Counted from the stretch's first letter, positions 17,242-23,891 are shown. The stretch is DNA of 64,000 nucleotides from Candidatus Poribacteria bacterium (GCA_965205015.1 OZ242029.1:1312001-1376000); one strand, 5' to 3'. Translations and numbers: made by a program. Notes: generated by a model from the letters alone, not told the origin.

Positions 17242-17359
17242 TCCCGGCAACGACCTACTTTCCCGCGGGGTTGCCCCCGAAGTATCATCAGCGCTGAAGG
17301 GCTTAACTACCGTGTTCGGGATGGGAACGGGTGGGTCCCCTTCGCTATAGCCACCGGAA
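17242..17359 (-). rRNA. rrf: 5S rRNA
   Basis: Reverse complement contains CCCATCCCGAACACGGTAGTTAAG and GGGAAAGTAGGTCGTTGCCGG; ends approximate. Confidence 0.95.
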
Positions 17360-17449
17360 AATTGTTTGTATGGCTCAGTATGATGTCCGAGCCGTTACAA
17401 GAGTATTTGACAATTGTATATAATGTGAGGGGTCAGTAGAAGAGAAGAA

Positions 17450-20418
<2,969 letters not shown>

Positions 20419-20458
20419 GTAATCTTATTCTTCTACCGATTTACCCTCTATATACAAT

Positions 20459-20491
20459 TGTCAAAGAACAACGCCTATTCAATCATAGGCG
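20459..20491 (-). promoter_or_regulatory. boxA-like antitermination element with an upstream hairpin
   Basis: Minus-strand GTTCTTTGACA (boxA-like) preceded by hairpin CGCCTAT/ATAGGCG. Confidence 0.55.
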
Positions 20492-20492
20492 A

Positions 20493-20563
20493 TGGAGCTG
20501 AACGGGGTCGAACCGTTTTCTGCCACACTGATGGCAGATGCTCACCTGAATGAGCTACTCCTA
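20493..20563 (-). ncRNA. tRNA-like element (degenerate tRNA-Ala derivative without an anticodon)
   Basis: D-arm GCTCA/TGAGC; 7-bp stem TCTGCCA/TGGCAGA with a 6-nt loop; T-arm AACGG-TTCGACC-CCGTT; 3' CAGCTCCA; acceptor stem broken. Confidence 0.7.
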
Positions 20564-20582: not shown

Positions 20583-20611
20583 AGTATACCACAAAAAATT
20601 AACTTTGTCAA
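20583..20611 (-). promoter_or_regulatory. strong sigma70 promoter for the tRNA-like/23S/5S transcript
   Basis: TTGACA-17 bp-TATACT with TG extension and an AT-rich UP region. Confidence 0.85.
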
Positions 20612-20699
20612 ATTTATTTTGCAAAAAAATCTAATTTTCGCCAAATTTGACCCGTTATCGCTTTATTTTTTAGCGTGAAAGCCGAGCCTGTAACCCGGA

Positions 20700-20772
20700 T
20701 GGAGATGAGCGGATTTGAACCGCTGACCTTCTGGTTGCAAACCAGATGCTCTCCCAACTGAGCTACACCCCC
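20700..20772 (-). tRNA. tRNA-Ala(UGC), CCA not encoded
   Basis: Full cloverleaf; anticodon loop TTTGCAA; G3:U70 identity pair. Confidence 0.97.
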
Positions 20773-20786
20773 AAACGATCATATGT

Positions 20787-20865
20787 AGTATACACCAAAA
20801 AGCGATACATGTCAAATTTATTTTGCAACAGAGTTAAGTATACCACAAAAAGCGATACATGTCAA
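20787..20865 (-). promoter_or_regulatory. two tandem sigma70 promoters (50-bp duplication)
   Basis: TTGACA-17-TATACT at 20787-20815 and at 20837-20865. Confidence 0.85.
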
Positions 20866-20886
20866 ATTTATTTTCAATTTAATACG

Positions 20887-21693
20887 TTATCTGGGGACGT
20901 TCCACCCCAATACAGGTCCACCCATTGGGATTCCGAGTCTTTCGTATCGTTCTTTGTCCTTTTTCCACCTTTTTAAGTTCGCTTTTGTGGCATCTGAGGG
21001 ATAGAGGTGGACTTCTGCCGTATAGAGTTCTATTGCTTCATCAATGGTAAGTCCGATGCCGTATCGGAATTTCTGCTTGAGTCGGAGATAGGTGCGGACT
21101 TCTGGAATATCTCCGAATTTCTTGATGAAAGGGTTGTGAGGACTCGGATTGTCTGGGTCATCCGTGAAAGGGTTAACGAGGACAAAATCTGGGGACACCT
21201 GTTTATCACGGACGGATGGGTTTTGAACGAACTCCTTACTGGCATCCACTACGGCATCAAGGATATAGGAGGGTAAATGCTCACGCACGGGGATTCCGAG
21301 TCTTTGGTACCGCTGTTTATCTGCTTTCAGATCCTTTAACATTTCCTTTGCAGCAGGGGTGGGATAGAGGTGGACTTCTGCCGTATAGAGTTCTATTGCC
21401 TCATCAATGGTAAGTCCGATGCCGCGTCCAAGTTTTTGCTTCAATCGGAGATAGGTGCGGACTTCTGGAATATCTCCAAATTTCTTGATGAAGGGGTTGT
21501 GAGGACTCGGATTGTTTGGATCATCCGTGAGCGGGTTAACGAGGGCAAAATCTGGCGATACCCGTTTATCACCGGTGGGTGGGTTTTGAAGGGGCTCCTT
21601 GACACGCCTTGCACTGCAACCGGACAGCAGGGTTATAAAAATAACAAAAAAAATCAAGTTCGCGGGGGTCGCTTCCGTAGTCGTTTCATCCAT
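20887..21693 (-). CDS. hypothetical lipoprotein with a recent 363-bp internal duplication (start uncertain)
   Basis: Lipobox LSGC; two near-identical 121-aa units containing FIKKFGDIPEVRTY...AEVHLYP. Confidence 0.65.
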   Translation of the reverse strand: MDETTTEATPANLIFFVIFITLLSGCSARRVKEPLQNPPTGDKRVSPDFALVNPLTDDPNNPSPHNPFIKKFGDIPEVRTYLRLKQKLGRGIGLTIDEAIELYTAEVHLYPTPAAKEMLKDLKADKQRYQRLGIPVREHLPSYILDAVVDASKEFVQNPSVRDKQVSPDFVLVNPFTDDPDNPSPHNPFIKKFGDIPEVRTYLRLKQKFRYGIGLTIDEAIELYTAEVHLYPSDATKANLKRWKKDKERYERLGIPMGGPVLGWNVPR

Positions 21694-23096
21694 CTTTGCG
21701 CCTTCGTGATGTTGGTGTCAAAGGGTTCCTTCATCTCAAAATACTCTGTATGTCCCGCATATATTTGATGCCAATCGACGATACAAGGCATCCTGTATTG
21801 GGTGAGGGTCCGCATGAGGAATGCTCGGACTTTGGCACGGGTATCTTGGGGTGCGTTGTCAATAGCGTGCTGAATGTGTTCATCGGTGACAACGCGCTGC
21901 ATTTGTCCCTGCTCCTCCAGTGCGTAGTAGAGTCCGCTTTCGGTATGGATGTTATGATATTCTAAATCTTGACTTTTAATCCAAGGGTCTTCCCAATCCA
22001 ATTTTTCTTCATCAATGAAAGCTTCAAGGAGCCATTTCTTTGCCGCCCAATCGACGCGATCGATAACATTTAGCCAATCATCTTCGAGCTCATTAAGGAT
22101 AGACTCCCATGCCGCAAGCACCCATTCGGTTTCCTCGTCACGATCGGTAACCAAAGCCTGAACGAAGTTAAGATACTCTCTCTGTAAATCAACGGCAGAG
22201 ATCGTTTTTCCGGATTTCAGTTCGACGCGCCAGGTGAAGGTATTATCGCGTGAGATGTGTCGAATCGCGTAGACGGGATCGGCGAGTTCAAAACCCGGGA
22301 GCGGCAATTTTTCGCCATGCATCTCGTAGAATATTTCAATAGCAGAGAGCAAAAGTGCAGTCGTGCCGACCTTCAGGGCGGTTGCGTACTCTGACATATT
22401 GGAATCCCCAACGAGAAGATGGAGACGCCGATATTTCGTATAATCACTGAGGGGTTCGTCTCGTGTATTGATGATGGCGCGACTGAACTGGATCCATTCG
22501 TATATTTCAGTAACGATGTGATCAGCGCGCTGCGAGATTTGATAGTATTGTTGCTCAGCAAGTTCGTCGTGAAAATCGCCGAATTCAATCATTTCATCAT
22601 ACGCCCCCACTCTGCCCGCCCCTGCATAAATCTGGCGTGTAACGAAGAAGGGCATCAGTGTCGGGATAACAACACGGTAAAAGGGAACGTCTCGACTGAT
22701 TTGGAAGTTTTCGTGACATCCAAAGGTTGCACCTGTAAAATGATCGATATTATTTTTGAAAAATGCCGTAGGTAACCCTGTATCTGTAAGGATATTGTTG
22801 ATAACCTGTTCAATGGCTTTGTCGTAAGCGATAAGGTCAAAAAGCGTACCGCATTCGGGTGTAGCGTACTCCAGATGCCCCATATCAATGTAGAGACGTC
22901 CTCCATTGTACAGGAACCCACCGTTGCCCGGAGGTTCACCCCAGTCTCGGTAGTGAATATCCCGAAGCCCGAGTTCCAACACATCGAAAACATAATCCCG
23001 TACGCGTGCCGCAACACCCTCAGAGGTGCCACGAATCCGTTCGGCATCCGTCATGCATCCGAATTCAGTTTCGATCCCAAAAATTCTTTTTTTCAT
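21654..23096 (-). CDS. pafA: PafA-like ligase of the UBact/Pup conjugation system
   Basis: RIFGIETEFG, NGGRLYIDMGHLEYATPEC, GCHENF, RRLHLLVGDSNMSE and DLEYH; last core gene of the proteasome operon. Confidence 0.88.
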   Translation of the reverse strand: MKKRIFGIETEFGCMTDAERIRGTSEGVAARVRDYVFDVLELGLRDIHYRDWGEPPGNGGFLYNGGRLYIDMGHLEYATPECGTLFDLIAYDKAIEQVINNILTDTGLPTAFFKNNIDHFTGATFGCHENFQISRDVPFYRVVIPTLMPFFVTRQIYAGAGRVGAYDEMIEFGDFHDELAEQQYYQISQRADHIVTEIYEWIQFSRAIINTRDEPLSDYTKYRRLHLLVGDSNMSEYATALKVGTTALLLSAIEIFYEMHGEKLPLPGFELADPVYAIRHISRDNTFTWRVELKSGKTISAVDLQREYLNFVQALVTDRDEETEWVLAAWESILNELEDDWLNVIDRVDWAAKKWLLEAFIDEEKLDWEDPWIKSQDLEYHNIHTESGLYYALEEQGQMQRVVTDEHIQHAIDNAPQDTRAKVRAFLMRTLTQYRMPCIVDWHQIYAGHTEYFEMKEPFDTNITKAQRWMKRLRKRPPRT

Positions 23097-23120: not shown

Positions 23121-23891
23121 TTATGGGAGTGCGGTTTCAATTTCTTGAGAAGTCAGCAGACGAAATTTACTCGTACCGCGCTGCGCAGTTTCCAAAACCC
23201 CTGCCTCAATTTCACCGTCTTCCCGTGCAAGATTAATAATTTCGTGCATTTGGGCAGTATCTATCTGGGTCTCCTCCGATTCAGCCTCCTCGGGTTCCCG
23301 GGAACTCAATTCTCTACCCACTGCCCACGCTTCTAAACCCAACTGGAGTGCAGCGGTTAAATCTCTGTCGGTATCTGCAGAAGCAGTCGTGAGATAGTTT
23401 TGCATTCCCGTCTCGATTGCCTCTGTACCACCGATAACGGTAGCGGTTGTGTCTGTTCGGACATTCCCGTCGTAGTTGATACAGGTAAAACGGTTTTTAT
23501 CATCCGTGCTGCCGAGTTCAGCGAGCAACATTTTAATGATATATGCTTCACCGACAATCGACTCAAACGCTTGTTTAAAAGTATGTGCCAAGACAAAGTT
23601 CGTGAGTCGGTGTAGGTTCACGTCCTCGGTGGCATTTTGAAAACCTTGGACGCTGGCGGTGTCGGTAACAAGCATTCGGAGGCGTTCAATATCGGCAGGG
23701 TGCCCGATTGCGGAGAGTGCGATTCGGTCATGCACCTCAAAAATTTTGCGTTGTCCTCTACCAATGGTAAGCAGGACCATACCCTCGTTATAGGTAAGTC
23801 CTACAACGGGACTCCCAGCGCGGAGTTGGTCTTCAATGTAATCTCGTCGGTCCTGGATGGCTTCTATCCAGCGATACGGTTCATCTCGCAT
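23121..23891 (-). CDS. prcA: 20S proteasome alpha subunit
   Basis: GSPVVGL and RKIFEVHDRIALSAIG; operon position. Confidence 0.88.
   Translation of the reverse strand: MRDEPYRWIEAIQDRRDYIEDQLRAGSPVVGLTYNEGMVLLTIGRGQRKIFEVHDRIALSAIGHPADIERLRMLVTDTASVQGFQNATEDVNLHRLTNFVLAHTFKQAFESIVGEAYIIKMLLAELGSTDDKNRFTCINYDGNVRTDTTATVIGGTEAIETGMQNYLTTASADTDRDLTAALQLGLEAWAVGRELSSREPEEAESEETQIDTAQMHEIINLAREDGEIEAGVLETAQRGTSKFRLLTSQEIETALP

Follow-up and report, generated by a model that had tools for sequence, protein, structure and literature searches.

Ribosomal RNA operons carry tRNA genes in their leaders and spacers, as in the arrangement 16S-tRNA-Ile-tRNA-Ala-23S. The presence of these genes is nearly universal, and whether they aid rRNA maturation or are merely co-expressed with the rRNAs is debated. 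The tRNA shape itself is mimicked by mascRNA-type and viral tRNA-like structures, for processing or for protein recruitment. Among the described systems closest to the present locus, RNase P separates polycistronic tRNA transcripts (PMC2190699), tRNase Z of Haloferax volcanii cuts a tRNA-like structure upstream of 5S rRNA (Hölzle et al. 2008, cited in PMC3296008), and plant mitochondrial t-elements with a GGTTCRANYCC motif serve as signals for RNase P and RNase Z (PMC1920247).

The stretch of DNA analysed here, which we call the window, comprises 64,000 nucleotides from a Candidatus Poribacteria bacterium (GCA_965205015.1 OZ242029.1:1312001-1376000). It holds a 23S-5S operon, one tRNA gene, tRNA-Ala(UGC), and a tRNA-like element located between the two on the minus strand; no 16S gene was found within the 64-kb window. 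The features of the locus are the following.

17242..17358, minus strand: 5S rRNA gene (105.6 bits)
17450..20417, minus strand: 23S rRNA gene (2707.9 bits)
20410..20465, minus strand: 5' strand of the predicted 23S processing helix, pairing with 17459..17406 in the 23S-5S spacer
20458..20471, minus strand: boxA-like box, TTGTTCTTTGACAA, with GTTCTTTGACAA at 20469..20458
20472..20491, minus strand: boxB-like hairpin with a 7-bp stem, starting two bases after the discriminator of the element
20493..20561, minus strand: non-decoding cloverleaf derived from tRNA-Ala (tRNA mimic), 69 nt from G1 (20561) to the discriminator A (20493)
20583..20611, minus strand: promoter-like site P3, TTGACA-17-TATACT, with TG before the -10 box
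20697..20773, minus strand: functional tRNA-Ala(UGC), the duplicate responsible for decoding (72.5 bits)
20787..20865, minus strand: promoter-like sites P1 and P2, in tandem before tRNA-Ala
20887-21693, minus strand: open reading frame of 268 aa, no Pfam match, between the Pup ligase and proteasome genes and the promoters
21654-23096, minus strand: Pup ligase gene, just upstream of the rRNA promoters
23121-23891, minus strand: proteasome-subunit gene, upstream of the rRNA promoters

The three promoter-like sites are of the sigma-70 type (TTGACA-17-TATACT) and lie on the same strand, two before tRNA-Ala and the third before the element, with 21 nt from the end of the P3 -10 box to G1. The promoter-plus-tRNA unit is repeated in tandem with a spacing of 204-208 nt. 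P1 and P2 (window 20787-20874, minus strand) are themselves the two copies of a 50-nt tandem repeat, with 95% identity across 38 nt, and all three sites have A/T-rich stretches upstream of the -35 box. In rrn operons, antitermination signals consist of a hairpin followed by a boxA-like GYTCTTTRACAA upstream of the rRNA, and the leader of the window presents this hairpin-then-boxA arrangement; we name its hairpin and box boxB and boxA on the assumption that the E. coli rrn consensus applies. When the leader is co-folded with the 23S-5S spacer, the predicted processing helix (-109.7 kcal/mol) takes in the 3' half of boxA and all that follows, up to and including the first bases of 23S. The element, about 75 nt before the 23S 5' end, falls outside this helix, and its cloverleaf and the boxB hairpin remain folded just 5' of it in the co-fold.

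The first-pass annotation of this DNA, made from the sequence alone, had described an anticodon-less tRNA mimic at 20493-20563. We place the element at 20561..20493 on the minus strand, the two further positions being leader bases. The Rfam tRNA model scores it at 19.4 bits, against a gathering score of 29 (E 0.21 in a 500-nt search), in an alignment that spans the whole element, opens a gap of three bases within the 5' acceptor strand and gives an unusual anticodon arm; a scan against Rfam at E up to 10 returned this weak tRNA match and chance matches, and no other family. Folded alone, the element forms a four-arm cloverleaf with a minimum free energy of -29.6 kcal/mol (z -4.4; none of 200 shuffles was equally stable). 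Its arms are the following.

20558..20561, minus strand: 5' acceptor strand GGAG, pairing with CTCC at 20497..20494
20540..20555, minus strand: D arm, stem GCTC(A)/(T)GAGC, loop with an invariant GG
20519..20538, minus strand: anticodon-like arm, 7-bp stem TCTGCCA/TGGCAGA, 6-nt loop
20501..20517, minus strand: T arm, AACGG / TTCGACC / CCGTT

Set against the neighbouring tRNA-Ala (20773..20697), most of what had been read from the sequence stands. The D-stem is paired, with the same GCTC/GAGC as in tRNA-Ala; the T-stem carries the announced double change, a G-C to A-T replacement that turns AGCGG/CCGCT into AACGG/CCGTT, around a loop (TTCGACC) with the canonical TTCGA; the variable region is down to 1 nt; and the anticodon stem is indeed re-paired, as TCTGCCA / TCAGTG / TGGCAGA, with 7 bp and a 6-nt loop (8 bp and a 4-nt loop in the minimum free energy version). 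The acceptor pairing, which had been declared lost, is in fact present: GGAG(U)/(G)CUCC gives 4-5 bp, the optional fifth pair joining U20557 to G20498. The 5' acceptor strand is short by three bases, and C-A(-G) on the 3' side is left unpaired. Acceptor and T stems stack over 12 bp in a tRNA, and over only 9-10 bp, with a 2-3 nt bulge, in the element.

Relatives of this locus were fetched through the adjacent Pup-ligase gene, which gave 80 loci, mostly titled Poribacteria and a few 'uncultured bacterium'. In most of the closer relatives (roughly 44 of L001-L060), a Pup ligase precedes the tRNA-Ala/23S start by no more than about 10 kb. A covariance model of the element separates elements (80-99 bits) from tRNA-Ala (40-51 bits) and other tRNAs (at most 29 bits); tRNA-Ala is the best match among tRNAs, with 44-46 bits in one search where the next reached at most 29. 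Among 150 sampled genomes of the phylum, 13 had one element each, 115 had a match at the level of tRNA-Ala only and 22 had no match at E 1e-9. The genome sample and the Pup-ligase loci yielded 15 distinct element sequences. A pattern scan of metagenomes returned 13 loci, seven of which are elements, all near the L008 type, adding two near-identical variants; the other six were discarded as unrelated tRNA-like sequences. The element is confined to part of one uncultivated phylum, a group of Poribacteria associated with sponges.

What stands in this position when the element is absent? In 46 of the 61 distinct 23S leaders there is no element, and 45 of these 46 have a real tRNA-Ala(UGC) there, which stops 69-90 nt short of 23S and is followed at once by the same hairpin and boxA. 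Only L103 (genome G025) departs from this: its tRNA-Ala is 251 nt from 23S, with some 180 extra nucleotides between boxA and 23S. The element occupies this slot in all 15 leaders that bear it, and tRNA-Ala is then found 235-378 nt before 23S. The boxA-like core TCTTTGACAA is present in all 61 leaders, at a distance from 23S of 47-60 nt in 60 leaders and of 232 nt in L103, and the boxB-like hairpin follows either tRNA-Ala or the element in the listed leaders, with stem changes such as GCCTAT/ATAGGC versus ACCTAT/ATAGGT. The element retains the ancestral 3' context (ATC, boxB and boxA) that follows the real tRNA-Ala elsewhere, as well as the ancestral promoter spacing, and the upstream tRNA-Ala has a new 3' flank. 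The element is therefore the original leader tRNA-Ala, altered in place, and the upstream tRNA-Ala its duplicate.

The first-pass annotation had also set the element about 20 nt after its own promoter and before boxA. This holds in the window, but the promoter is not general: 13 of the 15 variants have one, 17-21 nt ahead of the element, which begins 10-14 nt from the predicted start in these 13, and the elements of L008 and L097 would be reached only by read-through from the tRNA-Ala promoters. Several leaders have extra tRNA genes upstream of their tRNA-Ala: tRNA-Phe in L013, L014, L015 and L110, tRNA-Leu in L027, and tRNA-Ile in L102-L108 and L117, a distant group that keeps the classical pair of tRNA-Ile and tRNA-Ala.

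As a canonical tRNA, or as tRNA-Ala, the element was rejected on every feature considered save the elbow. Besides its sub-threshold Rfam score, ARAGORN calls a tRNA in none of the 15 variants. In place of a 7-bp acceptor there are four pairs with an optional U-G or U-A fifth; in place of a 5-bp anticodon stem, a 7-nt loop and a conserved anticodon there are 7 bp and a 6-nt loop whose mean pairwise identity is 0.55. The identity pair recognised by AlaRS is G3:U70, and at this position (alignment pair 14-77) the variants have A-U in 12 cases and G-U in three. The canonical feature that persists is the elbow, with the D-loop GG and a T loop fitting TTCRA. The element does not resemble a tmRNA either: ARAGORN finds none, and the Rfam tmRNA models give partial matches at chance level (10.1 versus 47 bits; 19.6-19.8 versus 47-70 for L010).

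The 15 variants align with zero indels. Over the 21 pairs of the cloverleaf, 97.8% of the 315 stem cells are paired. Compensatory double changes affect six pairs, of which three belong to the anticodon-like stem, two to the D stem and one to the acceptor. Six controls in which partners were slid gave 38-51% pairing and 0-3 double-change pairs, and none of 500 column shuffles matched the observed values of pairing, double changes or covariation. Related sequences may beat shuffles without any structure, and a structure derived from one of the aligned sequences is biased towards that sequence; more weight therefore falls on the slid controls and on the double changes.

Each arm contributes to this picture. 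In the acceptor, 98.3% of cells are paired, and L009 combines a G-C to A-U replacement with two G-U pairs. The four core pairs of the D stem are paired in all cells, with C-G replaced by U-A in L003; a fifth pair, A-U, becomes G-C in L008 and L009 and is weak, with A-C in four of the 15 variants. The anticodon-like stem has 98.1% of its cells paired and double changes at three pairs. The T arm is paired in 100% of cells, its loop reads TTCGAYY and the motif GGTTCGAYYCC is present in all 15 variants. The elbow bases, namely the D-loop GG (G27 and G28 of alignment A4) and TTCGA of the T loop, are invariant in the 15, as is the discriminator A, and G1-C72 and G2-C71 are retained; the base ahead of G1 is not conserved. 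Folded one by one, all 15 variants have the cloverleaf as their minimum free energy structure, recovering 18-21 of the 21 consensus pairs.

Rates of change point the same way. Mean pairwise identity, computed over the 105 pairs of the 15 variants, is 0.84 for the whole element, 0.88 for its stems and 0.85 for the D loop, T loop and connectors. The corresponding values are 0.55 for the anticodon-like loop, 0.59 for four-fold degenerate positions in the neighbouring Pup-ligase gene and 0.36 for the 11 nt that precede the element. In the 26 pairs that lie farthest apart, where the four-fold sites have reached saturation (0.39), identity of the element remains at 0.83. Conservation of stems and elbow, together with a variable anticodon loop, marks selection on the tRNA L-shape: the element has evolved under purifying selection on that shape, and not by decay. 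The initial proposals of stems re-paired rather than randomly decayed, and of a retained tRNA-elbow mimic, are both strongly supported by the 15 variants: their alignment keeps the structure, with double changes at six of the 21 pairs in acceptor, D and anticodon-like stems, and with an invariant elbow in an element that evolves far more slowly than neutral sites.

On a DNA tree of the Pup-ligase gene (85 rows), 13 bearers of the element fall in one clade of 18 with support 100/98, together with five element-free genomes (L006; L049, L002, L004, L005). Two more bearers, G065 and G110, lie outside this main clade; they share 83% and 77% Pup-ligase identity with the window, and their rRNA operon is not adjacent to the Pup-ligase gene. 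The tree requires at least four gains or losses of the element. Since all copies carry the same derived features, the simplest reading is that the element arose once and was later lost, or that recombination later replaced the leader, and the 23S tree (43 rows, first 1400 nt) has a backbone compatible with one as with several origins. The nested element-free genomes and the number of gains or losses suggest that the mimic is dispensable when a real tRNA-Ala fills the slot.

The alleles of tRNA-Ala, distinguished by variants in the anticodon stem and T loop, disagree with the Pup-ligase tree: the element-bearing L009 has the allele of the element-free L006 and L024, and its sister L008 has the allele of the window. 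This suggests that Poribacteria have exchanged sequence at the rRNA leader, by recombination or by gene conversion.

Another observation concerns the sarcin-ricin loop. That of the window 23S (17697..17683, minus strand) is TAGTATGAGAAGACC, in which a U:A pair closes the GAGA tetraloop where bacteria have C:G. The U:A closing pair was read in 22 of 22 Poribacteria genomes (the window, 20 fetched genomes and L045), and it is reported to be viable in E. coli mutagenesis. A sarcin-ricin-like hairpin (TAGTACGAGAGGAAC within a CCTT/GAGG-type stem) also occurs between tRNA-Ala and the promoter of the element in eight of the 15 element-bearing leaders: L007 (11683-11720), L009, L010, L012, L093, L096, L097 and L100, with both distant lineages included. 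Its closing pair is C:G in seven, unlike the resident 23S, and the more diverged L100 has T there; the shorter spacer of the window lacks the hairpin. We rejected the idea that this spacer contains a remnant of the resident 23S: a blastn-short comparison of the relatives' spacer with the window 23S-5S found nothing above shuffles, and Smith-Waterman alignment of the L007 spacer with the L007 23S scored 21, against a shuffled mean of 20.9, the sarcin-ricin-like motif being all that is shared. There is no Rfam LSU match in the tRNA-Ala-to-promoter spacer of the relatives either. That the hairpin is a mimic or decoy of the sarcin-ricin loop is speculation.

How could such an element have arisen, and what would it do? 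The ancestral operon read promoter, tRNA-Ala, boxB, boxA, 23S and 5S, and a duplication put a second promoter-plus-tRNA-Ala copy upstream. The copy left in place then lost all that decoding requires, namely three bases of the acceptor strand, G3:U70, the 7-nt anticodon loop and the variable loop, and selection retained its four helices and its D-loop/T-loop elbow. Comparison of the leaders shows duplication, loss of decoding features and retention of helices and elbow. Once transcribed, the nascent pre-23S leader would fold into an L-shaped tRNA-like module, read in cis by the tRNA end-processing machinery, RNase P acting on the 5' side and the tRNA 3'-end enzyme at the discriminator A. The cut would remove the short 5' leader or the upstream read-through RNA, and the precursor would then begin with boxB, boxA and the processing helix. 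An ancestral leader tRNA would thus have combined decoding with a cis role for the 23S precursor, of which the mimic would keep the second only, a case of subfunctionalisation.

The first-pass annotation had seen in the element a candidate signal for RNase P/Z processing, stability or regulation. The factors known to read the elbow with no need of an anticodon or of amino-acid identity are the end-processing enzymes, and where a real tRNA-Ala fills the slot its 3' cut must fall at most two bases from the boxB hairpin. Because the elbow is what these enzymes read, and because the tRNA-Ala of the slot is excised at the same borders, we favour the reading of the element as a cis-acting, tRNA-shaped processing module left behind after decoding moved to the duplicate, a function that we infer and to which we give about an even chance (roughly 0.5). 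Against it, the bulged acceptor and T stack of 9-10 bp may make a poor substrate for RNase P or RNase Z, and the base before G1 varies. The processing helix lies downstream of the element, so that the mature 23S 5' end could form in its absence; the element was lost or replaced repeatedly on the Pup-ligase tree; and two of the 15 variants have no promoter of their own.

The processing machinery itself gives a mixed answer. A type-A RNase P RNA was found in five of five relatives searched. RNase Z reached its curated NCBIfam cut-off in none of the five (G001, G002, G003, G065 and G110; best score 80 versus 293 bits, from a distant metallo-beta-lactamase relative), which also weighs against a processing module; a 308-aa metallo-beta-lactamase protein at L129:1279-2205 has RNase Z models as its best, sub-threshold matches. 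The leader tRNA-Ala genes that we read, in the window and the compared leaders, have no encoded CCA. Contigs covering the element were present in two of the four metatranscriptome runs examined, out of 24 listed, and one of 409 nt passes from tRNA-Ala through the element into 23S; being assembled, these contigs carry no information on ends, strand or level, and may include DNA.

Must the element be cut at all? A compact fold at the 5' side could shield the precursor from 5'-end-dependent decay or prevent mispairing, and could help boxB/boxA and the helix to form during the transcription of the roughly 3 kb that precede the 3' strand. The position of the element fits such an uncleaved module, both in its closeness to the predicted start in 13 of 15 variants and in its place directly before boxB/boxA and the helix, where it is folded in the co-fold; all stems are selected, and its shortened acceptor makes the element a less than ideal substrate for RNase P or RNase Z. 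However, a generic hairpin would need neither an invariant D-loop GG nor an invariant T loop, the elements of L008 and L097 would be internal to a longer transcript rather than at its 5' end, and the tRNA-Ala found in the slot of other lineages must be cut out to function, all of which makes this explanation unlikely. Equally, the element could be released to act in trans as a tRNA-like RNA, for instance by binding a tRNA-binding protein or enzyme, the leader supplying strong, growth-coupled expression. Selection on the whole L-shape rather than on one border, and the single copy per genome, would suit this, and bacterial tRNA-mimicking Y RNAs do exist (PMC4201824). We hold it to be quite unlikely, however: the only long unpaired stretch, the anticodon-like loop, varies (0.55) and leaves no sequence-specific pairing surface, the permissive Rfam scan gave the weak tRNA match only, and lineages devoid of the element have a plain tRNA-Ala in its place.

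One might also see here a functionless tRNA-Ala pseudogene in slow decay, as the element stems from a duplicated tRNA-Ala, cannot decode and was lost or replaced several times. An identity of 0.84 against 0.59 at four-fold sites and 0.36 in the flank, the lack of any indel in 15 lineages, compensatory changes in three of four helices and persistence in lineages that share no more than 77-83% Pup-ligase identity with the window make such decay very improbable. The 77-91% identity of the copies and their compensatory differences argue against recent lateral copying of one sequence. The retention of G1-C72, G2-C71 and discriminator A73 might recall an aminoacylated tRNA with a non-translational role, such as an amino-acid donor for cell-envelope synthesis; with A-U at the G3:U70 position in 12 of 15 variants, a bulged acceptor of 4-5 bp and no conserved anticodon for other synthetases, this is hardly credible.

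The processing reading has consequences for the debate on tRNA genes in rRNA operons. The retention of the element despite saturated silent sites argues for a benefit of the tRNA shape as such at the start of the 23S precursor. It is possible, if somewhat less than an even bet, that the cis role of an operon-head tRNA is isolated here, in the form of an L-shaped punctuation module through which RNase P and a 3'-end nuclease process or guard the 23S precursor. If true, this would be the first bacterial counterpart of the organellar t-elements and of the archaeal pre-5S tRNA-like structure, and its defined and naturally separated cis element of 69 nt would serve as a natural separation-of-function allele in asking why rRNA operons keep tRNA genes within them. 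Sub-threshold tRNA matches beside rRNA genes should not be dismissed as pseudogenes. In the open-access papers searched, no tRNA mimic or pseudo-tRNA is described from a bacterial rRNA leader, the head of a 23S precursor included, and searches on Poribacteria rRNA operons gave no such description either.

Compared with known systems, the element stands closest in position to the tRNA genes of rRNA operons: its place and 3' context match those of the pre-23S tRNA-Ala in 45 of 46 leaders, and RNase P recognition is expected of both. It differs from them in being sub-threshold in Rfam, in lacking the anticodon loop and G3:U70, and in its acceptor of 4-5 bp. The tRNA-like domains of Y RNAs (PMC4201824) share the mimicry of tRNA shape rather than decoding, in other hosts and contexts. 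The structure of H. volcanii is like the element a non-decoding tRNA-like fold upstream of a mature rRNA, for which recruitment of a tRNA-processing nuclease is proposed or shown; it lies in an rRNA precursor, as is predicted for the element. It is archaeal, however, lies directly at the 5S 5' end and was cleaved in vitro, whereas the element is bacterial, is separated from 23S by about 75 nt that include boxB/boxA and the helix, and has a predicted cleavage; its origin can be traced to a resident tRNA-Ala. The t-elements (PMC1920247) likewise have a non-canonical cloverleaf with a conserved T arm, GGTTCGAYYCC of the element fitting their GGTTCRANYCC, and both are proposed to be cis signals for RNase P and RNase Z. 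While t-elements flank organellar mRNAs, the Poribacteria element would head a bacterial rRNA transcript, where it replaces a real tRNA in a conserved slot.
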